A stretch of DNA of 64,000 nt from an uncultured Verrucomicrobiae bacterium (GCA_963761585.1 CAVXHW010000012.1:18716-82715); one strand, 5' to 3'. Counted from the stretch's first letter, positions 2,695 through 21,264 are shown. Notes: generated by a model from the sequence alone, not told the origin. Numbers and translations are program-made.

Positions 2695-2724
2695 CTATTC
2701 AGGGCGCTGATGTTCGATCGGTGA

Positions 2725-5389: not shown

Positions 5390-7521
5390 AGTGGGTCACG
5401 GCTGGCGTTACGTTCGTCAATTTGTCCGTCGTCTGCGGAGTTCTCCTCGGGCTTGTCGGAAGAGGGTTAAATGCGGTTAGCGCAGCTTTGGCATTGCTGT
5501 GTGGCGCCGCATTCGCAATCGCCGCTTTGCTTGGGACTCAAGACAGCTGGTTTGTGCAGAAGTCCCCTGCTGATCCGACAACAGAACGAAGGCCACGAAA
5601 ACTGCCTGGAGTCGCAGACGCGAAGAACGCGATTCCAGCGGCTCTGATGCGTTATCGAAGCGTCTGGTTCTGGGCGGTCGCAGTGTGTTTCGCCGTCTTT
5701 GCTGTGCGATCGTTTGTGTGGCTGCTATACATCGATGGCAGCGAACTCAAGATTCAGTCCCCAAATAATCTCGGCGACCTTTCACTGCACCTGACGCTCA
5801 TCAAAAATTTTGCCAACGGCGTCGCTCTTTGGCCGGACAATCCCATCTTCGTCTTCAGCAAATTAAGATATCCGGCGGGCATCGACCTGTTCAACGCACT
5901 GCTTTCGCTGGTTCACATCGATCTGTTGATCGGGTTGGTCTGGGTCGGATTGCTCTCTTCACTCGCGATTTTTTACGGGTTCTACCGGTGGGGCGGCACG
6001 TTCGCTGTTGCAGGTTTTTTGTTCAACGGCGGTATAGCCGGATTTCAATTTTTAAAGACGTTCAAATTTTTGGATTATCAGGGCGCGGCAGCAGACATCG
6101 CGCACAAGCCGATCGCCTGGAAAAGCATTGCATTATCGATGCTCGTTACGCAGCGCGGCTGGCTTTACGCGATCCCGGCAGGCCTGGTGCTACTCTGGCA
6201 TTGGCGCGAAAAATTTTTCACCCAATCTCCCGTAGCTGAGATCGGCGACCTCGGCCAATCCGATGACGGCGTTAAGAGTGAACCCGTCGCGGTCACCGCT
6301 CCCAGTTACCGGAAGGGTCCCCTTCCTTGGTGGGTCGAACTTTCAATTTACGCTTCGCTGCCGCTGTTTCACCTGCATACCTTCATCGCGCTGACCATCG
6401 TGCTGGTTGTCGGATTGTTTTTTGAACGCGCGACCGAAATCAAATTTATCGTTAATCTGGTTCGCAATGAAGGCATGGCCGGCATCGGTCGTTTGATTTC
6501 GCATCCGAAGATGTGGCCCGACATTTTCCGCGGCGCGCCGATTCGCAGACACGCTGCCGCCTTGTTGATCGCGGCTTTCATTCCAGCGACTTTTTTTGTC
6601 TGGCTGACTACCGATCAGTTCCGCGCAGCATCGGTGCTGAAGTGGCACCCCGGATGGGCTCAGGATTCGACCGAATTCGCCGCGCCTTTCTTCCGGCTCG
6701 GTCCGAAGGATTGGGGATCTTCTACGGGGCCTGGTCTGCTGTTGCAAAAAACATGGAACGGCGTCATCGCTCCATTTCTCCAATTTTGGCTGCCCAACTT
6801 CGGTTTATGGGTGCCACTGGCGTTGGTCCTTGTTGGAATTTGCGTTTGGCGTATTTGGAAGGGCAAGTGGCGTTGGGGCGACAGGCCGCCAGCGGATATC
6901 GCTTTCGTGCTGACGGCAGTCGTGATTTTCGCTTTCGGCTATTTCGTTCAAACCGCCCCGTGGGAATGGGACAATCTCAAGCTCATGATTTGGGGCTATT
7001 TTATTATCCTGCCTTTTCTGTGGAGCGACATCATTGGGCGCTGGGTCTTTCCGGAACGCGCCGTAATGTGTCTACTGCTCTTTGGTTCGGGATTTGTCAC
7101 GCTGCTTGGCGGCCTGTCTGCCGGACACCCGGGCTTTGGATTGATTGAGCGAGCCAGGCTCGATCACATCGGTACGGCACTTCGGCCGTTGCCGATGGAT
7201 GCCCGATTCGCGACTTTTCCTACCTTCAATCAACCGATTTTGCTGCAAGGCCGCAAAGCTGTGCTCGGCTACCCTGGTCACCTGTGGACCGAAGGATTCG
7301 ATTACGGCAAGACAAATGATCAGTTAACAGCTTTGATGAACGGCGCGGCGAACTGGCGTGACGCCGCGAAAGCATTAAACGTGCACTATATCTTTTGGGG
7401 CCAGGACGAAAAAACAAACTACCAGTCAAGTACCCACCCATGGGAAGCGACAGCATTCCTCGTCGCTTCCGGTGATTGGGGCGCAATTTACGATCTGACC
7501 AAGCCTGCTCCTCAGCACTGA
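5386..7521 (+). CDS. large polytopic membrane protein, function unknown
   Basis: 711-aa ORF with many hydrophobic helices. An ATGA start/stop overlap with the upstream GT-C-like gene implies co-translation. No family motif recognised. Confidence 0.55.
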   Translation: MKWVTAGVTFVNLSVVCGVLLGLVGRGLNAVSAALALLCGAAFAIAALLGTQDSWFVQKSPADPTTERRPRKLPGVADAKNAIPAALMRYRSVWFWAVAVCFAVFAVRSFVWLLYIDGSELKIQSPNNLGDLSLHLTLIKNFANGVALWPDNPIFVFSKLRYPAGIDLFNALLSLVHIDLLIGLVWVGLLSSLAIFYGFYRWGGTFAVAGFLFNGGIAGFQFLKTFKFLDYQGAAADIAHKPIAWKSIALSMLVTQRGWLYAIPAGLVLLWHWREKFFTQSPVAEIGDLGQSDDGVKSEPVAVTAPSYRKGPLPWWVELSIYASLPLFHLHTFIALTIVLVVGLFFERATEIKFIVNLVRNEGMAGIGRLISHPKMWPDIFRGAPIRRHAAALLIAAFIPATFFVWLTTDQFRAASVLKWHPGWAQDSTEFAAPFFRLGPKDWGSSTGPGLLLQKTWNGVIAPFLQFWLPNFGLWVPLALVLVGICVWRIWKGKWRWGDRPPADIAFVLTAVVIFAFGYFVQTAPWEWDNLKLMIWGYFIILPFLWSDIIGRWVFPERAVMCLLLFGSGFVTLLGGLSAGHPGFGLIERARLDHIGTALRPLPMDARFATFPTFNQPILLQGRKAVLGYPGHLWTEGFDYGKTNDQLTALMNGAANWRDAAKALNVHYIFWGQDEKTNYQSSTHPWEATAFLVASGDWGAIYDLTKPAPQH

Positions 7522-8285
7522 GGCGGGAGCGTTCCTGTTCGGCTGGCGGCTCTTGGAGTTGCCATCTTTCGTCGCACACGAAAGGGGTGCGCGAGGAAAA
7601 CGAAATAGATCGCGTTCACGAAATCTCTCAGGCTCGAAGCAGGACTTGTTAGGCGCAGCGGACCGGTGCGTAACCCGGCAAGAACGTTCTCGATTGTGAG
7701 CGTTCGCGGCATTGGCATACTCGTGTAGTGCCGGCCAAAGGCGTGCAGCCGATGCGCATCGGAAGTGGCGATCATTGGCTTGCTAAATCGGGTTGCGACT
7801 CGTTTTGCCCGGCGATTCGGATTGAACGGACCGAAATGAAAATGACAAAACTCAATCGCGTCAAAGCAATCGATCTCGGTGAACAGCCGCGATCCGATTG
7901 AGCCGCCGACAACGTAGAACGGGTGCGGCGCAATAGTGAAAATAGAATTCCCCCGGCGCGCCCGGAGTCGCCGCAAATCATCGAAATTTTTCACGTGCGC
8001 GATCTCTTCCGCGGTGACATTCAACACAATCACGTCTGCGCCAAGCAAACGCACCTCGGCCGCGGGAATCAGCAGAATGCCCATTGCCTCCGCGTCGGCG
8101 AACACTTCCTTTCGATTAAAGACAGCATCGTGAAGCGTGATCGCGAGGACTCGAAATCCAAACGAGCGCGCCCGTTCCAATAATTGGTGCGCCGAAAAAT
8201 CCACGGCGTCTTTAGGATCGTCGAGGGTGTGAATGTGCAGATCGATTTTGATCCATTCTTCTTCCTCGCTCGTGCTCGCGCTCAT
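7512..8285 (-). CDS. PHP-domain metal-dependent phosphoesterase
   Basis: 'IDLHIHT' N-terminal His motif and overall PHP-like pattern (later HD/H residues). Confidence 0.6.
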   Translation of the reverse strand: MSASTSEEEEWIKIDLHIHTLDDPKDAVDFSAHQLLERARSFGFRVLAITLHDAVFNRKEVFADAEAMGILLIPAAEVRLLGADVIVLNVTAEEIAHVKNFDDLRRLRARRGNSIFTIAPHPFYVVGGSIGSRLFTEIDCFDAIEFCHFHFGPFNPNRRAKRVATRFSKPMIATSDAHRLHAFGRHYTSMPMPRTLTIENVLAGLRTGPLRLTSPASSLRDFVNAIYFVFLAHPFRVRRKMATPRAASRTGTLPPQC

Positions 8286-8443
8286 GCTCCTGCTCGAAGC
8301 TTAATCGCGAATCGCTGATACTTCATTCTGCAAAGAATTCTGGTTGTCTGGAGTCCTCGAGTACGACCATGAGCAGGAGTAAGAAGGATACAGTCCACAC
8401 TTGCCAGCGCTTGTCGTCTGCGGAAAGTTTGCTCCCTCTCGAA

Positions 8444-8524
8444 GCTCGGGTGGTGAAATGGCAGACACGTACGTTTGAGGGGCGTATGCCGAAAGGCATG
8501 GGGGTTCAAGTCCCCCCCCGAGCA
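8444..8524 (+). tRNA. tRNA-Leu (anticodon GAG)
   Basis: Hand-folded. The acceptor pairs GCTCGGG with CCCGAGC. The anticodon stem pairs TACGT with GCGTA around loop TTGAGGG. There is a long variable arm, and the T arm is GGGGG-TTCAAGT-CCCCC. No CCA is encoded. Confidence 0.9.
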
Positions 8525-8605
8525 CAATCTTTCACACGGCCGTTTCGATGCGCGGTCAATTAGAACTTTTCGTATCATATCTCGTCCGATAGGATTTCGA
8601 GCAAC

Positions 8606-9622
8606 ATGGAATCGCTTTATCTCATCGGGGTCGCGGTACTGGCGTTATTCGCATTTGTACTGGCGATTGTTCTTTTCAATTTCTTCGGTCTCTGGCTGCG
8701 CGCACGGATCGCGAATGCGCCGGTGAGCCTCGGCAAAATGGTCGGCATGCGGCTGCGCAAAGTGCCGGTCGGGATGATCGTCGATAACCGGATCACCGCG
8801 GTAAAAGCCGGCATCGAGATTCCCAGTGACCCGCTCGAGGCACATTACCTGGCCGGCGGCGACGTTAATCAGGTCATCCTCGCTTTAATCGCAGCGGACA
8901 AGGCCGGCATTTCACTCGATTTCAACCGTGCCTGCGCCATCGATCTTGCTACCAAGGGGACGGGCAAGACGGTATTGGAAGCCGTCCGCACCAGCATTAA
9001 TCCGAAGGTCATCGACGTGCCCAACCCAGCGATGGGCCGCGTGACCATCGACGGTGTCGCGAAGGACGGGATCGGCGCAAAAGTAAAAGCGCGGGTGACG
9101 GTGCGCTCGCACCTGGACCGTTTCGTCGGTGGCGCCACCGAAGAAACGATTATCGCGCGCGTCGGCGAAGGGATCGTGAGCGCGATCGGATCGGCCGATT
9201 CTTATAAGGACGTGCTAGAAAATCCCGATCGCATTTCAAAAGCCGTCCTAGCCAAGGGACTCGACAGTAACACGGCGTTCGAGATTCTTTCCATCGATAT
9301 CGCTGACGTGGATGTGGGCGACAACATCGGCGCAAAGTTGCAAAGCGAACAGGCGAACGCGGACAAAAACATCGCCCAGGCGAAAGCGGAGGTGCGCCGC
9401 GCCGCGGCGGTGGCGGTCGAGCAGGAGATGCGCGCCAAGACGCAGGAGATGCGCGCTAAAGTCGTCGAAGCCGAATCGCTCGTGCCTCAAGCCATGGCGG
9501 ATGCATTTCGCTCCGGAAACCTCGGCATTATGGATTACGTGCGAATGAAAAACGTCCAGGCCGATACATCGATGCGCGAATCCATCGCAGGTGGAGACAA
9601 ACCACGGACGGGTGGGACTTGA
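8606..9622 (+). CDS. floA: flotillin-like protein FloA (UPF0365/YqfA family)
   Basis: N-terminal TM segment followed by '[27 protein letters not shown]' and an SPFH-like body characteristic of FloA. Confidence 0.8.
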
Positions 9623-9625
9623 TTA

Positions 9626-9777
9626 GTTGAAGGGTTAAAGCGTTTTTGTCATTCTGAGCGAAGCGAAGAATCTCTAATCAGTTACAGAACGACTGCCGCC
9701 CATAAGAACTGAGATGTTTCGCTTCGCTCAACATGACAACGACAGTCTTGCCCAGTTCAACGATTTAACGCTTCAAC
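9626..9777. repeat. composite palindromic element (family A core 9648-9737 nested in GTTGAAGGGTTAAAG / TTTAACGCTTCAAC outer arms)
   Basis: The core arms are GTCATTCTGAGCGAAGCGAAGAATCTC and its imperfect complement gagatgtttcgcttcgctcaacatgac. The outer inverted arms lie at 9626-9642 and 9760-9777. Confidence 0.85.
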
Positions 9778-9790
9778 GAGGTGATAGCCA

Positions 9791-10450
9791 ATGATTGCCT
9801 TTAGTCTGGACAACCTACTTTTCTTTCTGCTCATTGCTGTCGCAGCTTTGTTTCAGCTGTTGTCGAAAACGATAAGCAAAACAAAAAAGAGCGATTCGAA
9901 CGAAACGGCGAGCTCACCACGGCCACAAACACCTCGACCAATTCAACGCGCGTCACGGGAATCCGATGCAGATCGAATTCGTAAATTCCTCGAAGCGCTG
10001 GGTCAGCCGCCAAGTTCAACTCCCCCTTCGCCTGTTCTCCCGCGTACTAATATTCCGGCTCGACCACTGGCACCCGTACAACCCCCTCCAGCGCTCCCGC
10101 CTGTGTGGCGATTACCTCGCCAACGCGCAGAGAAACCGGACGTCAGCCAAAGAGAAAGTACTCCCATTAAACAATCGGGCGGATTGCAGCAAATCCTTCC
10201 ACCAGTTGTTCCGGCTTCGGCTGCACCAACCTTCGAAGTTCAAGCGGCGTTCCCTGTCGGGCCTCAGCAGCCGTCGGTCAAAACGGCTGTGGAATCTGAC
10301 GCGGCGGGGAGTGAGATAGTTGCCAAACGCTCAGGGTCCAAAACAGATATCGCCACCTTGCTCGCATCGACATCGAGTCTGCGCCAGGCAATCCTCATTC
10401 GCGAAATTTTAGGACCACCTCGCGGTTTGCAGACACTGGATCCTGTGTAG
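9791..10450 (+). CDS. hypothetical proline-rich membrane-anchored protein
   Basis: N-terminal TM helix, a long Pro-rich low-complexity body and a C-terminal 'LRQAILIREILGPPRGL'. No family recognised. Confidence 0.45.
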   Translation: MIAFSLDNLLFFLLIAVAALFQLLSKTISKTKKSDSNETASSPRPQTPRPIQRASRESDADRIRKFLEALGQPPSSTPPSPVLPRTNIPARPLAPVQPPPALPPVWRLPRQRAEKPDVSQRESTPIKQSGGLQQILPPVVPASAAPTFEVQAAFPVGPQQPSVKTAVESDAAGSEIVAKRSGSKTDIATLLASTSSLRQAILIREILGPPRGLQTLDPV

Positions 10451-10452
10451 TG

Positions 10453-10481
10453 TCCGCTGTCCTCAGCGGATTTGTTCGTTT
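10453..10481 (+). terminator. candidate rho-independent terminator
   Basis: Stem TCCGCTG/CAGCGGA with loop TCCT, followed by TTTGTTCGTTT, immediately after the stop at 10450. Confidence 0.5.
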
Positions 10482-10531
10482 CCCTCTTGCAGGAATGCGC
10501 TTAAGACGGCGCACCGGATAGCGCGGCAACG

Positions 10532-10559
10532 TTGAGCTTACTCTGGAGTCTCGTATCAT
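10532..10559 (+). promoter_or_regulatory. candidate sigma-70 promoter in front of the tRNA-Leu 5'-half copy
   Basis: TTGAGC, a 16-nt spacer and TATCAT, ending 13 nt before the tRNA-like sequence. The intact tRNA-Leu(CAA) has the same geometry and the same GTTGAGCTT -35 context. Confidence 0.4.
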
Positions 10560-10572
10560 TTTGACTTCCGAC

Positions 10573-10615
10573 GCCGGCGTGGCGGAATTGGCAGACGCGC
10601 TGGACTCAAAATCCA
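10573..10615 (+). repeat. 43-nt exact copy of the 5' half of tRNA-Leu(CAA), acceptor through anticodon loop (att-like direct repeat)
   Basis: gccggcgtggcggaattggcagacgcgctggactcaaaatcca is identical to 16967-17009. Identity stops just after the anticodon loop, and no 3' half follows. Confidence 0.9.
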
Positions 10616-10795
10616 AAAAATCCCCTAGCTAACAAGTTGTTGCCTAGGACATGAGCGACCAGCATGACTCCATAATAGACAGTCATCCCGTCAATTCGAT
10701 GTCAACGGATTGAGCAATCCCTTTCCTGCACGTTTTGCGGCGAACGGCGCTTTGTCATTGAATGTCCAGCGCCGTCAACGACAATTTTAATTGCT

Positions 10796-10978
10796 ATGAA
10801 AAACTCGATCATCTTCATTTCGGCCCTCTCTTTAGTGGCGATGATGCTGGCTTCGTGCAGTAGCGCTTTTGCACCCGACGACACGCAAACAACAGGCGTA
10901 ACGCGTCAGACTAACGAGCCGCCTCCTGAGCGCAGCGCCGAAGATTCAGCCAATTCAATCAGTGGTGGACATTACTAA
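10796..10978 (+). CDS. small putative lipoprotein
   Basis: MKNSIIFISALSLVAMMLASC has a lipobox-like LASC. It is only 60 aa, so coding status is uncertain. Confidence 0.35.
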   Translation: MKNSIIFISALSLVAMMLASCSSAFAPDDTQTTGVTRQTNEPPPERSAEDSANSISGGHY

Positions 10979-10986
10979 CAGGACTA

Positions 10987-11769
10987 ATGCCACCAACTGC
11001 ATTTTCTGAGGCGAAAACAAAGACTGGGAAACAGGTTTTTGTTTCTGAACTCTTCGAGGATTGGATAACGCGTAGATTGGGTCTTTCCCAGTCGCCATTG
11101 CGCAGCTTGGAGAATGACGACGATTGGACCTTCGTGATAAAAATACACGCTATCGCTGAAGCCGGTTTGAATCACCTGCTAAAGGTGCGGTTGAACGATC
11201 CAAAACTCATCAAGATTGTCATTAAGTTGCCGACGAATGATGAGAGAAGAGGCAAGTTGGCACTCATAAAAACATACGACCTCCTGAGAGAAGACTGCCG
11301 TCTGTTTGTGCGGCTATTTTCAGATATCAGAAATAGCGCCGTCCACGATGCCAAAAGCTTCAATTTAGACCTCATGAAGTATGTTGCGGCGCTCGAAGAC
11401 AAGGATAAACCGAAATGGAAAAGAGCATTTTCTTCCTGGTGGGTTCCGGGGTTTCCCGATCCGCAACACCCAGCCGCAGCGCAACACGAAGCGGCTGGTA
11501 GGTACCACCTTGAGACCGCGCTAGACGATCCGCGACTCAGTATTTTTAGGTCGTGCACGCACATTTTAGCTCAAGCTCAGGCTCAGGAAATGAACGCGGA
11601 AAGCCGCCGAAGAGAACCGATACAAGCTAAACTAGCCGCCGCAGGCTTGGCGGATCGTGTAAAGATTACGTTCACGGATGACGCAGACGGCTTCCAGTCG
11701 AAGGCTACCTTTTCTGGCTCAGAGGAGGACGTGGCGAAAGCGATAGAGGTATTTTTTAGGAGAGACTAG
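10987..11769 (+). CDS. hypothetical protein with HEPN-like Rx4H motif
   Basis: 260-aa ORF that looks helical by eye, containing 'FSDIRNSAVHDAK' (R-x4-H). No other family features recognised. Confidence 0.4.
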   Translation: MPPTAFSEAKTKTGKQVFVSELFEDWITRRLGLSQSPLRSLENDDDWTFVIKIHAIAEAGLNHLLKVRLNDPKLIKIVIKLPTNDERRGKLALIKTYDLLREDCRLFVRLFSDIRNSAVHDAKSFNLDLMKYVAALEDKDKPKWKRAFSSWWVPGFPDPQHPAAAQHEAAGRYHLETALDDPRLSIFRSCTHILAQAQAQEMNAESRRREPIQAKLAAAGLADRVKITFTDDADGFQSKATFSGSEEDVAKAIEVFFRRD

Positions 11770-11788
11770 ATTTCAGCTTGGCGAACCC

Positions 11789-12031
11789 TTGGGACAATCG
11801 AGCATCCACGTCTACGAAATCCGACCGCGCAAAGACAAACGCGGCGTCGATCTAATCAGCGACGCGCTTCCGTTCGGCCGGCTGTGGTATGATGGACCGA
11901 ACGCTGCCAGCAACGCAATCGGCTACGCCAGCCAGTACAGCCGCTCCCATGATGCTGTGATTCGCGTTTACGATGACGCGGGCAACGTCATAGAAACGCA
12001 CGAGCACGCAGGCGATTTCAAAGAACCGTGA
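11789..12031 (+). CDS. small conserved hypothetical protein (80 aa)
   Basis: TTG-initiated ORF IHVYEIRPRKDKRGVDLISDALPFGRLWY...HDAVIRVYDDAGNVIETHEHAGDFKEP. A degraded second copy lies at 13440-13669. Confidence 0.5.
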   Translation: MGQSSIHVYEIRPRKDKRGVDLISDALPFGRLWYDGPNAASNAIGYASQYSRSHDAVIRVYDDAGNVIETHEHAGDFKEP

Positions 12032-12154
12032 GGGCTGTCTCAGTCCCTCACATTACCTGTCACGCGGACTTTCTGCGGCTTGTGTCCCGTCGCGTTATAG
12101 CTCAAAGATTCTTCAGACCGTCTTCCCTGTTCTCAAGCAGCAATCCTCGAGAAA

Positions 12155-13375
12155 CTATTTCACGATGTTGTCCGTGTCGTAATAAAAGCTCGTGCCAATT
12201 CGGTTATCGTAGGCTTGCCTAACAGAATCGAATATATTATCGGTTACACGGATGGTGGAACTACCGGTGTAGGCAACAATACAGCTGCCGGCTTGCGTTG
12301 GCTTCAACGCTCGAAATATGTTGCCAGACACTCGCGCGTCGTTCGTTGAGGTGAGGAATACGCCATTCTCATTCGTTATCCTGTTGGTTTGGCTAGTAAA
12401 AGTGTTATCTGAGATAATGGCAGCAATACAGTTGGTAAGTGCTAGATGCGTGCCATCGACGGCAACCGGGTTCGCGTGTTCAAAGTCCACGTGCGAGACT
12501 TTGATAGCGCTTAAGTTCGTCATTCTCACGCCGTCCCCAATCATATCCACATGACCGTTTAACAGTGTGAAGACCGGACTAGGTGAAGATGATTGAGAGG
12601 ATGCAAGGCTCAACGCCGGCTGACCGCCCGTCCCGCAGGAGACAACTTCAAAGCCGGACATATAGAAGCCTTCTACCCATCCCGATGTAACAATAGCTGC
12701 GTTACAGAACTTTATCTCAACATGTGTGAGCTGTATGCCGGTTGTACCTACAGTTGTGGGAGAAGTCCATTGGATACCTGTGGAGGTGACACCGATGTTC
12801 CCTGAGATATCCACCTTGTCTATCACGGCGTTGTGCGCTCTGAATAAATAGATTCCCGTGGTCCAGTATCCTCCAGTATTACCCGTTTCGGCGTTACCAC
12901 GAATTTCGACGTTTTGGATGGTTGCGGTATGGTATTTGGCATTGCCATTCCCGAACGCGGCATAGATTGCTCTCCCAGTCGCACCTGTCAGAGCTTCGAG
13001 GGTAAGCCCGTCAACATTGAGCGTATTCGCTCCCACAGTCGGAGCATAGATGCCAGCCGAAGGGCCGGTAAAGAGGATCGTGGAGACCCCAGGTCCATCG
13101 CCATAAAAGCGGTATGACTTGTTGGCGGGGACAGTTATTTGACCAGTATAGTTATAGCTGCCGGGAGGAAAATAAATGCTTGTCCCAGCAGCAACTGCGC
13201 TATTGATAGCTGCGGTATCGTCCGTTCCGTCATTCGGCGTCGCGCCATAATCAGTAATATTGATTCGATCAACAGCAGCTGCACCGAAACCGCAAGCCAA
13301 GTTGAAGAGCATAGAGAGAATTATGAGAGCTTTGTTCACGCGGCGAAGAGTATGTGTCCTCGATACGGCAGGCAA
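12155..13375 (-). CDS. right-handed beta-helix / pectate-lyase-3-like (tailspike-like) secreted protein
   Basis: 'INITDYGATPNDGTDDTAAINSAVAAGTSIYFPPGSYNY' is the classic N-terminal motif of Pectate_lyase_3 and tailspike depolymerase domains. A signal-anchor-like N-terminus is present. Confidence 0.6.
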   Translation of the reverse strand: MPAVSRTHTLRRVNKALIILSMLFNLACGFGAAAVDRINITDYGATPNDGTDDTAAINSAVAAGTSIYFPPGSYNYTGQITVPANKSYRFYGDGPGVSTILFTGPSAGIYAPTVGANTLNVDGLTLEALTGATGRAIYAAFGNGNAKYHTATIQNVEIRGNAETGNTGGYWTTGIYLFRAHNAVIDKVDISGNIGVTSTGIQWTSPTTVGTTGIQLTHVEIKFCNAAIVTSGWVEGFYMSGFEVVSCGTGGQPALSLASSQSSSPSPVFTLLNGHVDMIGDGVRMTNLSAIKVSHVDFEHANPVAVDGTHLALTNCIAAIISDNTFTSQTNRITNENGVFLTSTNDARVSGNIFRALKPTQAGSCIVAYTGSSTIRVTDNIFDSVRQAYDNRIGTSFYYDTDNIVK

Positions 13376-13439
13376 GAATTTCTGAATTCGAAGCCGTTTA
13401 TTGCGTGTCGCCGTCTCTCTAATGAAAGCGATGCAACCA

Positions 13440-13669
13440 GCGCACTCTTACGAAGTCCATCCCCGCAATGATCATCACGGCGTCAATCTGATTTCCGATG
13501 CGCTGCTATTCGGACGGCTGTGCTACGGCGATCCTCGCGCAATCACGAGCGCAATCGACTACGCGAAGTTTCGCAACCGTTAACACGATGCCGTCGTACG
13601 CGTTTACGATGAAGCTGGTAACGTGATCGAGACGCACGAGCACGCAGGCGATTTCCCAAAGAACCGTAA
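13440..13669 (+). pseudogene. degraded copy of the 80-aa protein gene (in-frame TAA plus 2-nt insertion)
   Basis: SYEVHPRNDHHGVNLISDALLFGRLCYGDP...KFRNR*HDAVVRVYDEAGNVIETHEHAGDF. The TAA is at 13581-13583. An extra 'cc' before the terminal AAAGAACCGTAA distinguishes it from the copy at 11789-12031. Confidence 0.7.
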
Positions 13670-13675
13670 CGCGTG

Positions 13676-13710
13676 AAACAAAAAGCCGCCACGTGGTGAG
13701 CGTGACGGCT
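13676..13710 (-). terminator. candidate rho-independent terminator of the tail-fibre-like gene
   Basis: On the minus strand the stem AGCCGTCACG/CGTGGCGGCT has one mismatch and is followed by TTTTGTTT. It lies 20 nt after the stop at 13731. Confidence 0.55.
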
Positions 13711-13730
13711 GATTGTGAAATGCTGCTGCT

Positions 13731-15311
13731 TTAGGGATTGTTAACCATTTGCGGCGCAGGCTTGCTCGCTTCAACCTGAGCGCTCACCTTCTGGATTTGT
13801 GATGCCTGCTCGCCCAGGCGCTCAGTAAGCTGCGCAATTGTTGCCCCGAAATCTTTCTTTAACTGCGTGATCGTGGCCTGTTGTTCTTCCACCTTGCGAT
13901 GCTCCTTGAGGAACTCATTGAGCAACATCGCGTTCACCGCTTCGTAGCGCACCGTGTACACTTTCCCCTCGGCATCGCAAGCCACTAAGTCTGGATTCAC
14001 CCTTGCGACGTCCTCTGCTACGAGGCCAAATTGCGGTCTACGGTCAGGGTCAATCTCCTTCTTATAGCGAAAGCTCACAGGTTTAAGCGCGAGAATTGCT
14101 TCGCTGGTCTTATCCATCGGTCTGATTTCGTCCTTGAACCGACGCGAGGAGGCGGCCGTACCAAGCTGTCCGGACGAATTTACCTGAACAGCGCTTCCGG
14201 CGACGGGGACTCCGGTAATGCCAACGATAAATGTCCGTGTCTGCGCCCCTGCCGTGCCAATCCGGATCCTGCCCGACTCCCCAGCGATACCAACGTTGTC
14301 GATGTCGATATTGTTGTCACCCGTCGTTAGAGCATGACCCGCATCTTGGCCCAAAGCGATGTTGTTGCTTCCGGTTGTGTTGAAAAAGAGGGCAGTGGAA
14401 CCGAGCGCTGTGTTACCCTCGCCGGTTGTGTTATGTTGGACAGCACCAACACCAACTGCTGCGTTGAACTGCCCAGTTGTGTTGCTCATGAGCGAATTAA
14501 CGCCGATTGCCGTATTGTCAATGCCGGTGGTGTTGTTCCCGAGCGCACTGAAACCTGTGGCCGTATTTTCGTTGCCGGTAGTGTTACTCCGAAGCGCTGT
14601 GGAACCGGTAGCGGTGTTATCAGCGCCGGTGGTGTTGCTAAAAAGCGCTGTGGAACCGATAGCGGTGTTATCAGCGCCGGTCGTGCTCCTCTCAAGCGCT
14701 TGGGAACCGATGGCGGTGTTAAAGTTGCCGATGGTGTTGTTAAGGAGCGCCTTAAACCCGTTGGCGGTGTTAGCTCGGCTGATAGTGCTACTAAAAAGCG
14801 CTTCAAATCCGGTGGCCGTGTTATCGAAGCCGGTGGTGTTGCTAAAAAGCGCTTCAAATCCGGTGGCCGTGTTTTGCTGGCCCGTGGTGTTGCTAAAAAG
14901 CACTGCCGTGCCAGTGGCCGTATTTGCGTTACCGATGGTGTTGTGAAAGAGCGTATTCACGCCGACCGCCGTATTTGCACTCCCAGTGCTATTGTTGGGG
15001 AGCGCGTTAACGCCATTGGCAGTGTTTTGAGCGCCGGTGGTGTTGTTAAAGAGTGCGTGGAACCCCTCGCCGGTGTTGAAATTGCCGGTAGTGTCTTGAA
15101 AGAGCGCTTGAAAACCCACAGCGGTGTTGTCGATGCCACTCGTCAGGCTCTGGAGTGCTTGATCTCCTTCGGCCGTGTTGCTCCCCGGATAACCGCCGTC
15201 AGGTGGTGGAACGACTGCTTGCGTGCTCGGCAAAAGGCCGAAGCAGAGGAGTGTTAGTGTGAGTGTAATGAGAAGTGGTGGAGTTGTTTTGAGCTGAATC
15301 AGTAGATTCAT
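13731..15311 (-). CDS. tail-fibre-like secreted repeat protein with C-terminal intramolecular chaperone (peptidase S74-like) domain
   Basis: Signal peptide, then about 18 copies of a 17-aa repeat (NTAxGxxALxxNTTGxx). The C-terminus reads 'GTAASSRRFKDEIRPMDKTSEAILALKPVSFRYKKE...FGLVAEDV...YEAVNAMLLNEFLK', typical of the endosialidase-chaperone domain. Confidence 0.7.
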   Translation of the reverse strand: MNLLIQLKTTPPLLITLTLTLLCFGLLPSTQAVVPPPDGGYPGSNTAEGDQALQSLTSGIDNTAVGFQALFQDTTGNFNTGEGFHALFNNTTGAQNTANGVNALPNNSTGSANTAVGVNTLFHNTIGNANTATGTAVLFSNTTGQQNTATGFEALFSNTTGFDNTATGFEALFSSTISRANTANGFKALLNNTIGNFNTAIGSQALERSTTGADNTAIGSTALFSNTTGADNTATGSTALRSNTTGNENTATGFSALGNNTTGIDNTAIGVNSLMSNTTGQFNAAVGVGAVQHNTTGEGNTALGSTALFFNTTGSNNIALGQDAGHALTTGDNNIDIDNVGIAGESGRIRIGTAGAQTRTFIVGITGVPVAGSAVQVNSSGQLGTAASSRRFKDEIRPMDKTSEAILALKPVSFRYKKEIDPDRRPQFGLVAEDVARVNPDLVACDAEGKVYTVRYEAVNAMLLNEFLKEHRKVEEQQATITQLKKDFGATIAQLTERLGEQASQIQKVSAQVEASKPAPQMVNNP

Positions 15312-15531
15312 GATTCTTTCCTTTCTTTTTCCGCATTAAGTTGATTCTGAATTGCCGGGTTCCCGAAAGAGGCGAAGAACCTGAGCGGGGAAAAGCCCTC
15401 CGCCTGATTCAGATACGTCTAACGCCGTCGAGTTTGGGAAAAAGCTCGTCAACCCGTCAAGACAATTCGCCGCAAGCGCAGATCGTAGATTCGCGTTCCA
15501 GGAACGCCGTCAGCTTTTCATCTTGGCAAAA

Positions 15532-16011
15532 CTAGAGGGAATCCCAAAGAGGTCGCAAATCCTCATCCTCCAGAGCCGCCATTCGCCAATCCAAATCAAT
15601 TTCAAAAGCTTTTTTAAGATAGCCTTTGGCGTTTTCCATTTCTCCAAGTTGGCAATAATAACACGCAAGATTATATGGAATTGCAGCCTCTCTTGGGAAC
15701 TTCGCCTCTGCGTTAAGGAGAATTTCCATCGCTCCGTCGATGGAATATGCTCGCCGAGTCGCATATGCCAGCGAGATTGTCCATTGGACATTATCCGGCT
15801 CAAACTGCTTCAGACGTTTGGCGATTTCCTGCATCAGCTCCCATTTTTACAATCCACGATAAATCTCGATCCTTACGGCGAGAACTTCGGGGAGCAGCAC
15901 GACAAAACGGGTCAATTTTTCTAACTCCGAATCGGCCTCTGCAAACATTCCAAGTTCGACGTATCCAATTGCAGCTTGCCGATATTGTTGGTCTGGCGGT
16001 TCAAGTGGCAT
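15532..16011 (-). pseudogene. TPR-like protein gene interrupted by an in-frame TAA (15847-15849)
   Basis: Manual translation gives MPLEPPDQQYRQAAIGYVELGMFAEADSELEKL...IEIYRGL*KWELMQEIAKRL...YNLACYYCQLGEMENAKGYLKKAFEIDLDWRMAALEDEDLRPLWDSL. A single frame is broken only by the one stop. Confidence 0.6.
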
Positions 16012-16160
16012 GATTGCGTTCCTATCGCACTAATGAGTTGAAAGCGACCCAGCCCAACCTCCATCGAGCTTTCCTAAGGTTGTTAGCGATTGATTTGCCA
16101 GTTCTTCATTCGATGCCTCGGCGGCATCACCGGGTACACCTACGGCTGACGTCGCTTGAT

Positions 16161-16814
16161 TTATCTGACCAAATTTGCAAACGGAGCGTAATCAAGTTGC
16201 CCGTATCGCGGCGGAACGATCTTATTTGAATCTAAACCGCGCCGCGCTGCCGCTTGCTTTGCACCCTCGTATGTTTTCATGTCTCGCGCGTATTGCGATG
16301 CCTTTTCTTGCGGCGACATCGCTTCTTCCCGAGCTGCCTTCTCTAACTGAAGCTCCTTCTCGGACATTTCGACTTCCAACCCGTTGACGCCACCCACGCC
16401 CACGACATGCCGCCCGGTTGCCGTCTTATGTCCCGGCTCGATTGTCGTGTTTTGTGCCTTGGCAGCTTCTTCCGTTGCTCGCCGTGACGATTCCAGTGCC
16501 ACTTGTTTTTCTTTTTCCCGCTGCTTATTAGCTTCTTCAATCTGTTGATTTGTCCGCTGAGCGGTGGTGGCTTGGGCGCCGGCGAAATCAGCAGCCTGTT
16601 GCGGATTATAGTTAAACCGCTGCTGAACCTCTTTCGGCAGTTCTTGAAAATAAATTTTAGAGATTCCCGATTTCGACTTAACCACAATCCCATCGGGGTC
16701 GACGTGAGTGACAGTGGCGTTTTTGTATTCCTTTCCGGCAACGGTTTTGAAGTCGTCAGCCAGTGCGAGTGATGTAGACAGTGCCGCCAAAATTACTAGG
16801 GGGAAGGAATTCAT
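16161..16814 (-). CDS. secreted protein with a conserved N-terminal domain and a charged, apparently coiled-coil tail (paralogue of 32593-33177)
   Basis: Signal peptide plus 'DDFKTVAGKEYKNATVTHVDPDGIVVKSKSGISKIYFQELPKEVQQRFNY'. This closely matches 'EDFKTVNGKEYKDATVTRVEPDGIVVKTNSGITKVYFTELPKEVQEHFHY' in the other copy. Confidence 0.55.
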   Translation of the reverse strand: MNSFPLVILAALSTSLALADDFKTVAGKEYKNATVTHVDPDGIVVKSKSGISKIYFQELPKEVQQRFNYNPQQAADFAGAQATTAQRTNQQIEEANKQREKEKQVALESSRRATEEAAKAQNTTIEPGHKTATGRHVVGVGGVNGLEVEMSEKELQLEKAAREEAMSPQEKASQYARDMKTYEGAKQAAARRGLDSNKIVPPRYGQLDYAPFANLVR

Positions 16815-16925
16815 GCTGCGGATTCTGCCTCTTTCTGCTCTGCCACTGCAATGACAAAGTTAGAGTCAGTCACGCTCAATCGCTCTGCGCTTCGTTTAGA
16901 GAAGCGGCTACAGTTTGTTGCGAAG

Positions 16926-16953
16926 TTGAGCTTCGCGCACGTGCTTGTAGGTT
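16926..16953 (+). promoter_or_regulatory. candidate sigma-70 promoter of tRNA-Leu(CAA)
   Basis: TTGAGC, a 16-nt spacer and TAGGTT, ending 13 nt before the tRNA 5' end. Confidence 0.4.
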
Positions 16954-16966
16954 CAGGATTCCAATT

Positions 16967-17050
16967 GCCGGCGTGGCGGAATTGGCAGACGCGCTGGACT
17001 CAAAATCCAGTGGCCGCAAGGTCGTGTGGGTTCGAGCCCCTCCGCCGGCA
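16967..17050 (+). tRNA. tRNA-Leu (anticodon CAA)
   Basis: Hand-folded. The acceptor pairs GCCGGCG with CGCCGGC. The anticodon stem pairs CTGGA with TCCAG around loop CTCAAAA. There is a long variable arm and a T loop TTCGAGC, with one T-T mismatch in the T stem. Confidence 0.85.
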
Positions 17051-17103
17051 ATGAATTCTCAATTCAATGGTCGATGTCGGACCTTCAGCGCGACGCGATC
17101 CAT

Positions 17104-20100
17104 CTATCGTTTCGTCTCATCTGGAAAAAAACGCTTCCAAACCAATTCGTAGGGATCGCCAGCTTTGCTTTCGGGATACTTTTTCCGCACATCTTCCAGT
17201 GTCATCAAAGAGCCATCTTGACTGGGATCGGACGCACTCACTGCGCTGGCAATGTCTGCCAACCATGGAGGCGCAGGTTTTGCTTCGAGTTTTTTAGATG
17301 CATCGTCTTGCGTCCGATACAGTGGACTGACGTCAACGAGGCGCACGCTGTCGAACACGTTGAACATTGCGCCTGATAAAATCAGCAATCGTTGGCCATC
17401 CAAACTGAACTGTGGAAATCCGAGTGAGCCGCGGAATACCACGGGCTCGGCCGGCTTTTCCCTGTGCGCACCCTTTGCAACGTCAACTCGACCGTACAGC
17501 GAAGTGGCGACGAGACGTGTGGCATAGTCGCCTGGTCCGACGATCAGTCGCATGAACTGGTCGCGGAAAGTCGGCGGCGGGATCGGGGTCACTTTTCCGT
17601 CGCGGAGATTAAGAGTTCGCACGCTGTTCCAACTCGTTAGGGTAATTTCGTCATTGCCGGGACCGAAAGCGATGCCGTTTGGCAGGAAACCTTCGGACAA
17701 TCGAATCGAATCTTTTCCGTCTATGGGGAATACCTGGAGATAGTCGTCGCTGAATGAAAATAAAGCTACCTTGCGCAGTGCTGGCGCGTCGGGATCCACA
17801 GATACTGCGGCCATGCCGCTATGGTACGTGGCGAAAGCAAGCGCCACGATTTTCATGTCCGTGAGTCGCTTGGATCTATCGACGAGTTCCCGGAACGTTC
17901 CCTCGACCTGGAAAAAGGCGCATTCCGCCTCGTTCGTGCCGCGCGCATTAACAATGACAAGCCGATCTGACTCGTTAGACCACGCAAAATTGATGCGGGA
18001 GCCTCGAAGCCGCTGAATTTCCAAGTCCTCGCCCGTGGCGTCGTACGTTCGATTCTGCATCGACCATCGCCAGACCTGAATTTTGCATAGCTCGTGGCCA
18101 GCACCGGCGGGTGCGGGCGGTGCTCCCTGTGCAGGCGCGCCTTGCACGGCGCTCTCTCCATCGGCACCCGAAGCAAGCGTTGGTGGAATGATCAACAACC
18201 AGCGTCCGTCGGGGCTGAAGGATGCAAAACCGGGTTGCACGATCTGCTGAGGGTTAGCCGGTTGCGGCTTCTCAAATAACGATTTGGCGGTGGGCGACAT
18301 CGAGCGTCCTCCATTCCAGAACAAGAGCTGACCATCACCGCCCACAACGAAGATTTCGTTGTTGCTTCCTCCCGGAAGGAAGGTTGCTGCGAGTAATGCA
18401 TCTTTCTGATAAAGCACAGCCGGCGCGGCCGGGGGACACCAAACATGTTGAAGCAATAGATTGCTAGCCAGCATTGCTGCTTCGGTATCCAGAGGATTAC
18501 AATTCAGAGCAAGCGCGAGGTTCCGAAGCGCAGTGATATCCTTTATCGGATTATCCGTTCCGTCATGTAAAACTAACTTTGCGTTTTCTCTGAGACTTTG
18601 GCCCCTCTCGACCAGTGCCTGATGCTGTGTCTCCAGCTCCTCGGCCTTTTGCTTCGAAAGCCGCGACGCCCGTAGCGACACTAACCAGAGCGCTGCGAAG
18701 GCAATCAACATGATTATCCCAAGAAAGAAGACCGTGATGCCGAAGACTCGTTCCCGCTTGCGCTTCTCCAGCAGGAGGTTTACGCGTTCGCTCTCGGCTT
18801 TGCGTAGTTTCTCCTGTTCTTCAGCGCGCTGACGTGCTTCCTCCAACTCCTCGGCCTGGCGTCTTTTTGTCTCCTCGATTTGCTTTCTGCTGCGCGTAAC
18901 AAGCAGCCGCGCCTCCGGAGTTGCGCCGAGAATCTTCGCTTCTGGCGAATTCAAATACGCCTCTGCTTCACGAAGCTCCACTTCATCCAGAAGGTCATCC
19001 GATCCGCGTTTAACGTATTCTTCCAACTCCGCGCGAATTCGCTCCGCATCCTGGTATCCGGCAAGCCACTTATGATTGGACTTCTGTATTGGTTCGATAA
19101 AGCGATCGTGAGTTAACTCGTGAGTTATTGTGCCTGAGCGATCCTCCCGACGAATAACGTGAGCTTCCTCCAGCTCTTTTAGTGCGAGCCCCGGGATTCT
19201 CCAGGTCGCTCCAGGCGCGCCGCGAAAAGCAAGTCCGCGTGTTCCGGTAGGAGTTATCAGAGCCGTTCCAAACCAACGCCGCAATTCACCTTCGCCGATT
19301 CTGCCTTCAGTAGCGGCAGCAGCTCTCTCCACTGAGCGATCGTAGTAGCGCGCTAAAGCATTATCCACGTCGCCGAAGCGTTCGATATATTCGGCCGTGA
19401 TCAGACGCGATCCGTCGCTGCTGACGTTCGGTCCACCTTTCCATTCCAACGGCAGGTTTTCCCAGAGCGATTGGCACACGACTTGAAGCTGAACCGGTTC
19501 CACGAATTCGCCGCAGGTTTCACGGAACTTGTCGCCTTCCGCTACCCGAATCTCCGAAAGCTCCCCCATCAATTCGTCGGCTGCGTTCGGGTCGAAGGAA
19601 AGGCCCCAATTCTCGAAAGGTTTGACCACCGCGGAGCGGGCCGCATTTCCGCGGAGTCGCTCCAAGTGCATGCGTGGCCGTAATTTCTCCGGAAGCAAAT
19701 CGGCGAACGGCTCCAGTTGCGCGATGTACTCCTCACGCATGACGAAAACAACCTTCATCGTTGGCAAGTCGTTCAGGGCCTGCGCCAGCTGATCGAAAAA
19801 CGGGCGCCGTTCCTGCCAGCGATACTGATTGGTCGTGAAGAATTCTTCGAATTGATCCAGGATTACGATTAACGGAGGCGGGCTATCCTCGTCTGCTGCT
19901 GGAGCAGCAACGAGAGGTTTGAGAAATTCAGACAACGTTGTCTTCGCATGATCTTTGATGAATTGGCCGTTCGGCAATGTTGTCGCCCAGTATTGAAGCG
20001 CGTGGTAAACAAAAATGTTTTGCACGCTCTCGGGCGGAACATCATTTGGCAGCAAACCATGGACGCGTGCGGATCGCAGAACCTGGTACTGCTGATCCTC

Positions 20101-20286
20101 CAGGCGCGGGATGACACCTGCCCGCAATAACGAGCTTTTGCCTGCTCCCGATTGCGCATAAACAAGGACAGCCCGGTGCGCGATGATCAATGAAAGAAGC
20201 TCCTCCGTCTCGCGCGTGCGACCGAAAAACCGATCGCTGTCCTCCTTTTCAAAAGGCCGCGGTCCGACGAAGGGCGAATCGCTCAT
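17104..20286 (-). CDS. STAND-type P-loop NTPase with central hydrophobic helix and C-terminal beta-propeller-like domain (~1060 aa)
   Basis: 'FVGPRPFEKEDSDRFFGRTRETEELL', Walker A 'AQSGAGKSSL' and Walker B-like 'LIVILDQFEEFF'. A charged, probably coiled-coil segment follows, then the TM-like 'VFGITVFFLGIIMLIAFAALWLVSL', then a C-terminal region with 'FSPDGRWLLI' and 'FSLDGQRLLIL' blade-like motifs. The start is taken at the ATG in an ATGA overlap with the upstream stop. Confidence 0.75.
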   Translation of the reverse strand: MSDSPFVGPRPFEKEDSDRFFGRTRETEELLSLIIAHRAVLVYAQSGAGKSSLLRAGVIPRLEDQQYQVLRSARVHGLLPNDVPPESVQNIFVYHALQYWATTLPNGQFIKDHAKTTLSEFLKPLVAAPAADEDSPPPLIVILDQFEEFFTTNQYRWQERRPFFDQLAQALNDLPTMKVVFVMREEYIAQLEPFADLLPEKLRPRMHLERLRGNAARSAVVKPFENWGLSFDPNAADELMGELSEIRVAEGDKFRETCGEFVEPVQLQVVCQSLWENLPLEWKGGPNVSSDGSRLITAEYIERFGDVDNALARYYDRSVERAAAATEGRIGEGELRRWFGTALITPTGTRGLAFRGAPGATWRIPGLALKELEEAHVIRREDRSGTITHELTHDRFIEPIQKSNHKWLAGYQDAERIRAELEEYVKRGSDDLLDEVELREAEAYLNSPEAKILGATPEARLLVTRSRKQIEETKRRQAEELEEARQRAEEQEKLRKAESERVNLLLEKRKRERVFGITVFFLGIIMLIAFAALWLVSLRASRLSKQKAEELETQHQALVERGQSLRENAKLVLHDGTDNPIKDITALRNLALALNCNPLDTEAAMLASNLLLQHVWCPPAAPAVLYQKDALLAATFLPGGSNNEIFVVGGDGQLLFWNGGRSMSPTAKSLFEKPQPANPQQIVQPGFASFSPDGRWLLIIPPTLASGADGESAVQGAPAQGAPPAPAGAGHELCKIQVWRWSMQNRTYDATGEDLEIQRLRGSRINFAWSNESDRLVIVNARGTNEAECAFFQVEGTFRELVDRSKRLTDMKIVALAFATYHSGMAAVSVDPDAPALRKVALFSFSDDYLQVFPIDGKDSIRLSEGFLPNGIAFGPGNDEITLTSWNSVRTLNLRDGKVTPIPPPTFRDQFMRLIVGPGDYATRLVATSLYGRVDVAKGAHREKPAEPVVFRGSLGFPQFSLDGQRLLILSGAMFNVFDSVRLVDVSPLYRTQDDASKKLEAKPAPPWLADIASAVSASDPSQDGSLMTLEDVRKKYPESKAGDPYELVWKRFFPDETKR

Positions 20287-21264
20287 CCCCGGCTGAAAGC
20301 TTCCCACCGCACTCGCAGCTCCTCGCAAAACTGCTGACACGTGCCCCAATAAATTTTTACCTGCGCGCTGCCGAAATACGAATCGAGGTACTTCACGGCC
20401 TTGGCCGCTTTCTCTGCCTGCTCGCCTGGCGCGTCAGAAGGCTCTAGTTGCACCGCGATGTGCGTGTTACCACTGTCGCGCAGCTTGTTTGCGAAGAGTC
20501 GGAAGAGCACCAGAAAATCCCAGTCCGACAGGGTGTAGCCCAAAAAGAGCAGCGCGCCTCCCAGCGCTCGATCGACTCGATGCGCGAGTGATTTGTAGTC
20601 CCGCGAAATGTTGATTAGGAATTCAAAATAATCGTCCTCGGTCACTACCGCCGATTCCGCCCACGGCGTGCAACCGTGAAAATGATAGACAAGTGGATTC
20701 GCTACTGAATAGGCGAAGTCCCCGATCAAAACTTGGCGCTTTCTCAGGGATATGCCGGTTCCAACGACAGATCGCAAGACGCGCATCTCGTTTCTTGTAT
20801 TCGGTCAGCGCGCGAAACATCCAATCGTCGAAGTTACTCGTGAGATAAACTGGAAAAGGAAGATCGGCCAAAACCCGGTGCGGCTCGTTAGGCCAAGCCG
20901 AAAAGTTCGGTGACGGCAGACTACCGAAATGTTCGGCGAACGCCTCTTTCGGAGCCATGATGTCATCGGTCGCTGCCACGTATTTCGCCACTCGTTCCAG
21001 CTTGGTTTGATCGTCGAGCGGATAGGCGTAATCAGCCGCGAACTGGAGCGCGATCTGTTCCTTTGACGGATAATTCAATTTTGCCCATTCTGCCGGATCA
21101 GCACCCACGGGAGGGGCTGTGCACGCACCCGAGCCAAGCACGGGCGTGCACTTGTCGTCTCTGATGCGTTTCAATAGCCGCTCCCAAGTCTTGTCGTCCA
21201 ACTCACGGCCGCTCTTCGACGGCAGAACGTCCTTTGATTCGGCGGCAACGGGGTCAGCGCTCAT
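20283..21264 (-). CDS. SIR2-like (SIR2_2-type) protein B, apparent 1-nt frameshift at a G4 run (~20720-20723)
   Basis: Two overlapping ORFs (20623-21291 and 20283-20786) together align along the whole of SIR2-like protein A: 'KCTPVLGSGAC', 'YLTSNFDDWM', 'NPLVYHFHG', 'VVTEDDY', 'FLGYTLSDWDF'. Removing one G from GGGG restores PSFDRDFAYSVANPLVYHFHG. Confidence 0.7.

Follow-up and report, generated by a model that had tools for sequence, protein, structure and literature searches.

A tRNA-Leu(CAA) 5'-half repeat and the islet it bounds in Candidatus Udaeobacter, a probable remnant of a site-specific integrative element

P4-like and phage-inducible chromosomal island (PICI)-like satellites carry an integrase gene (int), an AlpA/excisionase-type helix-turn-helix (HTH) gene and a primase gene, and those of the P4 type regenerate the 3' part of tRNA-Leu. 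Among the 3919 islands catalogued by Islander (Hudson, Lau & Williams 2015; PMC4383910), 3760 are marked by a 3' tDNA fragment and 159 by a 5' fragment, while 2083 have anticodon-centred sites; both the 5'-fragment configuration and the anticodon-centred ('A') sites are recognised classes in that collection. Cis-mobilizable elements (CIMEs) are remnants derived from integrative and conjugative elements (ICEs) or integrative and mobilizable elements (IMEs), which remain flanked by attachment (att) sites after the loss of their integration and transfer genes, and those described have their origin in conjugative or mobilizable elements of Firmicutes, for which insertion at the 3' end of target genes is reported (Guedon et al. 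2017, PMC5704250). The islet considered here lies in a 64,000-nt stretch of DNA (hereafter the window; GCA_963761585.1, CAVXHW010000012.1:18716-82715) from an uncultured Verrucomicrobiae bacterium, where it occupies the 6351 nt (10616-16966) between an intact tRNA-Leu(CAA) gene and an upstream copy of the 5' half of that gene, and it is probably what remains, after decay, of a site-specific integrative element that had entered the anticodon stem-loop of tRNA-Leu(CAA). The window lineage is Candidatus Udaeobacter (Verrucomicrobiota), a soil bacterium. This lineage is uncultured, globally abundant in soil and characterized by small genomes, and to our knowledge its mobile elements are essentially undescribed.

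The 43-nt repeat and its two promoters

ARAGORN identifies two tRNA genes in the window, tRNA-Leu(GAG) at 8444-8525 and tRNA-Leu(CAA) at 16966-17051, the latter being also recognised at 16967-17050 by Rfam RF00005 with 55 bits. The first 43 nt of tRNA-Leu(CAA) (16967-17009) are repeated with 100% identity at 10573-10615, as found by repeat search and in the sequence itself, and the two copies share the same orientation (both +), the 5' fragment lying 6.35 kb upstream of the intact gene. This direct repeat had been noticed in a first-pass annotation of the window and is fully confirmed; an exact repeat of such length is expected by chance in 64 kb with a value of about 1e-17 by our own arithmetic. 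The anticodon stem-loop reads CTGGA/CTCAAAA/TCCAG, and the identity ends at A43, one base short of the end of the stem arm TCCAG (40-44). A 3'-half fragment of tRNA-Leu(CAA), which would be the sign of a classical island on the other side, is found nowhere in the window.

Both copies are preceded by the same promoter geometry, as had been proposed from the sequence and as is borne out here. Upstream of the fragment, GTTGAGCTT (10531-10539) is followed by 16 nt, the hexamer TATCAT (10554-10559) and 13 nt before the fragment begins, and a consensus promoter scan flags this site at 10532-10559. Upstream of the intact gene, GTTGAGCTT (16925-16933) is followed by 16 nt, TAGGTT (16948-16953) and again 13 nt, a site which falls under the threshold of the sigma-70 scan. 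The combination TTGAGC(TT) + TAGNTT is the most frequent layout upstream of tRNA-Leu(CAA) in relatives. Apart from the -35 motif and the spacing, the two upstream regions of the window are unrelated to each other.

The locus shares with islands of the Islander type an intact tRNA gene accompanied by a cognate end fragment, which has the same orientation and, as a 5' fragment, lies upstream, a split gene that is restored, a breakpoint at the anticodon stem-loop (class A) and a length, 6351 nt, within the range of 2-200 kb. It differs from them in having no integrase inside or overlapping the islet, so that the Islander integrase filter would reject it, and also in its host, an uncultured verrucomicrobium, and in the recognisable promoter copy that the element appears to supply. 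The polarity had been regarded as atypical in the first-pass annotation; it is indeed uncommon, but with 159 5'-fragment islands against 3760 of the other kind it is neither new nor undocumented (PMC4383910).

Empty and occupied sites in relatives and the conserved arm

For comparison, 80 loci (designated here, like the further contigs, by L numbers) were retrieved from genome collections with the flotillin-like gene FloA (8606-9622), with identities up to 99%, and almost all of them belong to Candidatus Udaeobacter or to metagenome-assembled genomes of Chthoniobacterales. Their usual layout, seen for example in L011, L014, L025, L032 and L036, comprises a PHP gene on the minus strand, tRNA-Leu(GAG), FloA, p219 (a low-complexity protein of 219 aa), a gap of about 120-150 nt, tRNA-Leu(CAA), a sigma-like gene, a kinase gene and p542. 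Empty sites, in which p219 is followed after this gap by a single tRNA, are present in L014, L016, L025, L032 and L011. The window fragment starts 122 nt after p219, which is the place of the intact tRNA in relatives, and the homology of the window to the empty-site loci L014 and L016 extends from p219 across the promoter and ends at 10615, namely at nt 43 of the tRNA. The region 10531-10572 (+), which is homologous to the promoters of L014 and L016 and continuous with the p219 homology, is the native promoter region of the original tRNA gene, and now seems to drive the dead fragment only.

The clearest pair of empty and occupied sites is provided by L003, a close relative with a single tRNA (FloA 97%), and the metagenome contig L091. 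Positions 126-670 of L091 correspond to 12141-12685 of L003, up to nt 43 of the tRNA, and positions 2344-10688 correspond to 12643-21002, from nt 1 of the tRNA onwards, which gives a clean insertion of 1673 nt flanked by the same 43-nt repeat. With the two arms and the p217 gene of the window islet, the insert has an identity of about 88%. The promoter on the fragment side of L091 is of the L003 type, while that on the side of the intact tRNA is not, being nearly identical to the right-hand promoter of the window; the insert therefore supplies both a promoter and a 5' half, and the right promoter belongs to the insert because the homology to L003 resumes exactly at nt 1 of the tRNA. The search for an empty site suggested in the first-pass annotation has accordingly yielded five loci with a single tRNA and one clean pair.

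L001, whose DNA is about 93.5% identical to that of the window, shares the islet ends and lacks the portion corresponding to window 10984-15793, therefore the insertion is older than the split of the two lineages and was followed by internal loss or gain of cargo. The orthologous fragment of L001 has 3 substitutions in 43 nt, which fits a neutral relic, given a neutral divergence of about 6.5% in the flanks. A 5' fragment at the same position with the intact gene 1.5-8.3 kb beyond is also found in L026, L030 and L057 in addition to L001, while L002, L013, L040 and L045 contain the fragment with no intact gene in range, and L012 and L059 contain tandem fragment pairs. A blastn search with the whole tRNA, which is unbiased as to breakpoint, gave 50 full-length and 23 partial matches in the window and the 80 loci, and the fragments that start at or near the 5' end of the tRNA, at least 15 in number, all stop at nt 34-46. 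According to the first-pass annotation, the same fragment with different cargo in relatives would argue for a simple local duplication; this reasoning fails, as the same breakpoint and arm with varied cargo point to an integration hot spot.

The 105 nt that follow the fragment (10616-10720, +) can be aligned with about 16 other junctions and read CCTAGCTAACAAGT ... CCTAGG ... CCATAAtAGACAGTCAT ... GTCAAT-N6-GTCAAC. In the family as a whole, this arm of about 105 nt contains CCTAGCTAACRAGT, CCTAGG, GCGAAC, CCATAA-AGACNNTCAT and two GTCAAY repeats, and it is common to about 16 junctions in at least 6 unrelated upstream contexts. The left arm is a putative integrase/Xis binding arm; it is not a known RNA, since an Rfam scan of the islet finds the tRNA only. 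The right arm of the window, which together with the presumed element-borne promoter occupies 16815-16966 (+), is common only to L001 and L091/L121, and is nearly identical in the latter two, whose left promoter is of the L003 type. The same left arm is also observed behind the 5' half of a CAT-anticodon tRNA (GGGCCTGTAGATCAGCGGTTAGAGCAGGGGACTCATAATCC) in L187 (about 6765-6900) and L185 (1-110), therefore the element family uses the 5' halves of more than one tRNA.

Fuller members of this family contain genes that are missing from the window. An excisionase-type HTH gene stands behind the arm in L095, L118, L187 and L191, and in all of these except L118 it is succeeded by an open reading frame (ORF) of 149-158 aa and a primase-like gene, whose homologues often have the CHC2 zinc finger PF01807. 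In another Udaeobacter genome, L191 represents the same locus with PHP, tRNA(GAG), FloA and p219; followed along its 104-kb contig in search of a right end, the element gives way to metH and other core genes without a tRNA or an integrase, and this copy is rearranged or decayed. Related modules adjoin Phage_integrase genes in L184 (an island of the classical type, marked by a 3' fragment of tRNA-Gly), in L190 (beside tRNA-Thr) and in a 36.8-kb JGI contig, where genes of the excisionase-like, primase-like, p80 and S74 kinds precede an integrase gene located about 9 kb from the primase-like one.

When metagenomes were scanned for the 5' half of the tRNA with a non-tRNA base behind it, 101 contigs were obtained, a set which is silent on the constancy of the breakpoint because the search pattern fixes it at nt 43. 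Beyond the junction, a few sequence families can be distinguished. The second and larger left-end family (L084-L177) is characterized by gctaYgCTAGG, about 10 nt, and GTTGCC-N5-GTTGCC, often followed by AATGGCAAC; it occurs with many different native promoters, and a p80-like gene is frequently next. The spaced GTTGCC repeats look like protein-binding sites.

Islands of about 10 kb bounded by the same 5' half are found in other organisms with a GC content of 39-42% (L122 538-10722 and L103 295-10497). In these islands the 5' fragment is followed by a tyrosine integrase gene, whose end is separated from the intact tRNA-Leu(CAA) by about 12 nt. The complete architecture therefore exists, and in view of the short distance the tRNA promoter must lie inside the integrase gene, or the two genes are co-transcribed.

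Other incomplete or degenerate copies of the tRNA are also present in the clade. L068 (20820-20853) contains a 3' fragment of tRNA-Leu(CAA), nt 49-82, about 6.4 kb downstream of the intact gene, which is the sole 3' fragment found, and islands of classical polarity therefore also use tRNA-Leu(CAA) in this clade. In L049 (1889-1972), and also in L021, L119, L128 and L179, a degenerate full-length tRNA-Leu copy precedes the intact gene by about 0.95 kb, the interval containing one ORF, which represents a separate kind of event, either a tandem duplication or an older insertion.

Proposed integration at the anticodon stem-loop and alternative explanations

The first-pass annotation left a choice between an unusual integration polarity and a tRNA duplication with deletion, the promoter and 5' half having been duplicated or imported; import by integration with the unusual polarity is supported by the fragment at the native position, the clean L003/L091 pair, the shared arm and the endpoints at nt 34-46. 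It is also favoured by the excisionase-type and primase-like genes behind the arm in fuller relatives, the Phage_integrase genes beside related modules, the 10-kb islands of other organisms, the tandem fragments of L012 and L059, the distinct composition of the islet and the recognised Islander classes. The incoming element would have carried an attachment site composed of a promoter of native geometry, nt 1-43 of the tRNA and the arm of about 105 nt, and recombination by a tyrosine integrase would have taken place in the 7-nt anticodon loop, between the stem arms CTGGA and TCCAG. On the left, attL (10531-10720) would have left the native promoter in front of a dead 5' fragment, the displaced nt 1-43 at 10573-10615 (+) being the attL copy of the identity block. 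On the right, attR (16815-17050) would join the element promoter and 5' half to the native 3' half to give a working tRNA, the first 43 nt of the intact gene (16967-17050, +) being the attR copy, and the element-borne promoter presumably being active. The element would later have lost its integrase, excisionase and primase-like genes while keeping its cargo (apparently secreted beta-helix and S74 proteins, p80, p217 and two pseudogenes), and its present state would be that of an att-flanked, integrase-less (CIME-like) islet in a recurrent integration hot spot of Candidatus Udaeobacter.

Several observations weigh against this origin. No integrase, excisionase or transposase is found in the 64-kb window; the absence of an integrase or transposase from the islet, already remarked on at first inspection, is upheld by Pfam searches of the islet ORFs, and six-frame phmmer/hmmsearch searches of the window with five integrase queries and a three-sequence profile are equally negative. 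A recombinase is also absent from the 14 distinct complete fragment-bounded islets (1.5-8.4 kb) at this site, as judged by Pfam sweeps of ORF sets, a metagenome-islet sweep, and phmmer, hmmsearch and tblastn searches with integrases found elsewhere, where one Pfam sweep of relatives' ORFs covered the best 25 of 71 families and is not conclusive alone. No integrase lies within 12 kb of the arm in L191 and L185, and the searches brought up no Udaeobacter element that combines this arm and polarity with an integrase in an intact state. Moreover, the element-borne promoter resembles native promoters of other Udaeobacter lineages, and the right end of L026 contains a 3' remnant of p219 together with the promoter; the right-end promoter of the window and the L026 remnant could thus be read as import of a foreign chromosomal allele, while the remnant also suggests that elements gain their promoter by capturing the upstream flank of a former host. 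The whole-tRNA blastn is the one unbiased measure of breakpoint constancy, the metagenome junctions having been selected by pattern, and the recombination itself is deduced from comparison of sequences.

Such an allele import, in which DNA of another Udaeobacter lineage with cargo, its own promoter and the tRNA would have entered by homologous or homology-facilitated recombination with the tRNA as anchor and without a site-specific recombinase, the islets then spreading among strains via recombination in the conserved flanks, is unlikely, although it would suit the right-hand promoter type, which is native in other lineages (e.g. L025 and L011), the right end of L026 and the count of 0/14 complete islets with a recombinase. 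It leaves unexplained the invariable position of the breakpoint at the 3' edge of the anticodon stem, why the same arm of about 105 nt stands behind the 5' halves of two different tRNAs and why this arm precedes excisionase-type and primase-like genes, and 43 nt are a poor substrate for RecA-type recombination. A local tandem duplication of promoter and tRNA, followed by insertion of unrelated DNA between the copies and deletion of the upstream 3' half, might be invoked in view of the degenerate full-length upstream copies in L049/L021 and L119/L128/L179 and the resemblance of the two promoters of one locus in L094 and in L104. However, the two promoters of the window agree in no more than the -35 motif and spacing, in contrast to the full identity of the 43 nt, truncations arising independently would not be expected to stop uniformly at nt 43 +/- 3, L003 and L091 differ by a single clean insertion, and the arm is also found at other tRNA sites, so that this explanation is largely refuted and very improbable.

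Retention of the promoter and 5' half as a functional gene for a small RNA resembling a tRNA half would agree with the exact window fragment and its consensus-like promoter, but it is hardly credible, since the 3 substitutions in the L001 fragment match the neutral divergence of its flanks, other fragments have up to 5 mismatches, and Rfam gives no match at the fragment. A modified form of the proposal, which is unlikely, is that the Udaeobacter islets are a population of integrase-less, promoter-carrying cassettes, and that an integrase encoded elsewhere in the genome or on a helper element captures, stacks and exchanges them at tRNA-Leu(CAA) and other tRNAs; if true, the tRNA 5' half would serve one of the most abundant soil bacteria, in the manner of an integron, for the acquisition of genes for secreted proteins and defence. 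The completeness of the downstream gene copy rules out a group I intron or split tRNA, and the lack of a transposase, together with a repeat equal to a functional half of a gene, makes a transposon with a long target duplication unlikely.

As a decayed integrative element, the islet appears to resemble a CIME. It may still have both att-type ends, as the 43-nt repeat is exact and the left arm well preserved, the right arm being common only to L001 and L091/L121; neither a recombinase nor a transfer gene is found in it by Pfam, PHROGs and integrase searches, as in CIMEs, and the tandem fragment arrays of L012 and L059 look like accretion. In contrast to CIMEs, it targets the 5' half of a tRNA gene, and unlike in CIME ancestors no conjugation or mobilisation genes are seen in the fuller relatives. 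The similarity to P4/PICI-like satellites lies in these fuller relatives, where the excisionase-type HTH gene stands beside the primase-like gene and the modules occur near a tyrosine integrase (L184 and L190), whereas no capsid, packaging or helper-interference genes were identified and the window islet has kept none of the module.

The comparison exposes a recurrent gene-acquisition hot spot and an element family in Candidatus Udaeobacter, and the 43-nt block, the arm of about 105 nt and the element-borne promoter of native geometry may serve as handles for finding more such elements. It also indicates how the 5' end of a tRNA gene can be exploited by an element, that is, by carrying a promoter look-alike. 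For the biology of tRNA islands, examples are added to a known minority class and the general picture is unchanged.

Composition, cargo and neighbouring genes

The islet is compositionally distinct, with a GC content of 0.517 compared with 0.547 in the rest of the window and 0.496 at its left end, which substantiates the earlier impression by eye of an AT-rich left end; 0/91 equal-sized windows elsewhere have a GC content as low as that of the islet. Its tetranucleotide distance is 0.223 versus 0.126 +/- 0.011, a value which is somewhat raised by the 51-nt repeats of the S74 ORF.

Behind the left arm, a small lipoprotein-like ORF of 60 aa (10796-10978, +) is part of the cargo and occupies the same post-arm place in L091, L121, L155 and L088. 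The next cargo gene (10987-11769, +) encodes 260 aa, has a homologue behind the same arm in L090 and is absent from L001. It had been called HEPN-like, a designation which is unsupported, as the protein has no significant family in Pfam, PHROGs or PADLOC, and an RNSAVH motif is seen by eye only. The gene for p80 (80 aa; 11789-12031, +) belongs to a very large, highly conserved family with more than 7900 homologues at E<=0.001, which recurs in islets at this site and in other flexible regions. The 120 homologues listed are 79-95% identical, contain no Pfam domain and are all named 'hypothetical'. In contigs of soil bacteria p80 is present in multiple copies in flexible regions, often near Peptidase_S74 proteins and once near IS110-type transposases. 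A dead copy of p80, detected as repeat D3 and having an in-frame stop in its translation, is located at 13431-13676 (+).

Two larger cargo genes are on the minus strand. The product of 12155-13375 is a pectate-lyase-like beta-helix protein (PF12708, 8e-10) with an N-terminal hydrophobic leader, and shows a weak match to a tail-spike PHROG over about 50 residues only. That of 13731-15311 is provisionally identified as a secreted repeat protein with a C-terminal Peptidase_S74 chaperone domain (PF13884, 1.6e-11; repeats D1/D2), which matches PHROG virion-structural and tail-spike proteins down to 2e-57; its N terminus is signal-peptide-like by eye, and paralogues recur in related elements. This protein contains at least 11 copies of a 51-nt (17-aa) repeat, NTAxGxxALxxNTTGxx, at 14355-15095 (-). 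A pseudogene with weak matches to the tetratricopeptide repeat (TPR) and an in-frame stop follows at 15532-16011 (-), and p217, a secreted protein of 217 aa with a 91% ortholog in L001, is encoded at 16161-16814 (-). p217 is often the last gene before the right arm in the islet family; its homologues are placed near the right-hand end of L091/L121, L110 and L066 and deeper within L126/L171.

The gene list of the first-pass annotation thus stands for the pectate-lyase-like and Peptidase_S74 ORFs, which Pfam recognises, for the small gene with its dead copy and for the TPR gene with a stop codon, the HEPN-like assignment being withdrawn. Its tailspike-like and tail-fibre-like genes do have PHROG matches, yet these are not a sign of a prophage, given the signal-peptide-like starts seen by eye and the recurrence of the genes as element cargo; the 'tail fibre' genes appear to encode secreted proteins and not prophage parts. 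A prophage remnant was considered and rejected, as only two ORFs match PHROGs, through their beta-helix and S74 repeat domains, and have hydrophobic leaders. The fragment junction gave 0 matches in a collection of viral contigs.

Directly 3' of the tRNA, the window encodes on the minus strand (17104-22154) an nSTAND1 NTPase of 1081 aa and then SIR2/ThsA-like ORFs, among which 21261-22154 is matched by PADLOC ThsA with 3e-14. The window shares this block with L001, L003 and L091, while in L014, L025 and L032 it is missing and the sigma-like gene comes immediately after the tRNA; it is a second variable, defence-like block, which no tRNA 3' fragment marks. Within it, the ORFs 20623-21291 and 20283-20786 (-) overlap in different frames and jointly match the neighbouring SIR2-like protein over its whole length, with 39% in L003, where a single frame encodes it; the region 20283-21291 looks like a frameshifted paralogue or a sequencing error.

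On the other side of the locus, L015 has a tyrosine-integrase-like ORF (1635-2801, -) just upstream of FloA, where relatives carry tRNA-Leu(GAG), and ARAGORN finds no tRNA-Leu(GAG) in the L015 locus; this tRNA gene may be a second integration site. Between FloA and p219 in the window (9646-9739), a 29-nt inverted repeat, TTGTCATTCTGAGCGAAGCGAAGAATCTC and its complement, is 86% complementary and has a 36-nt spacer.

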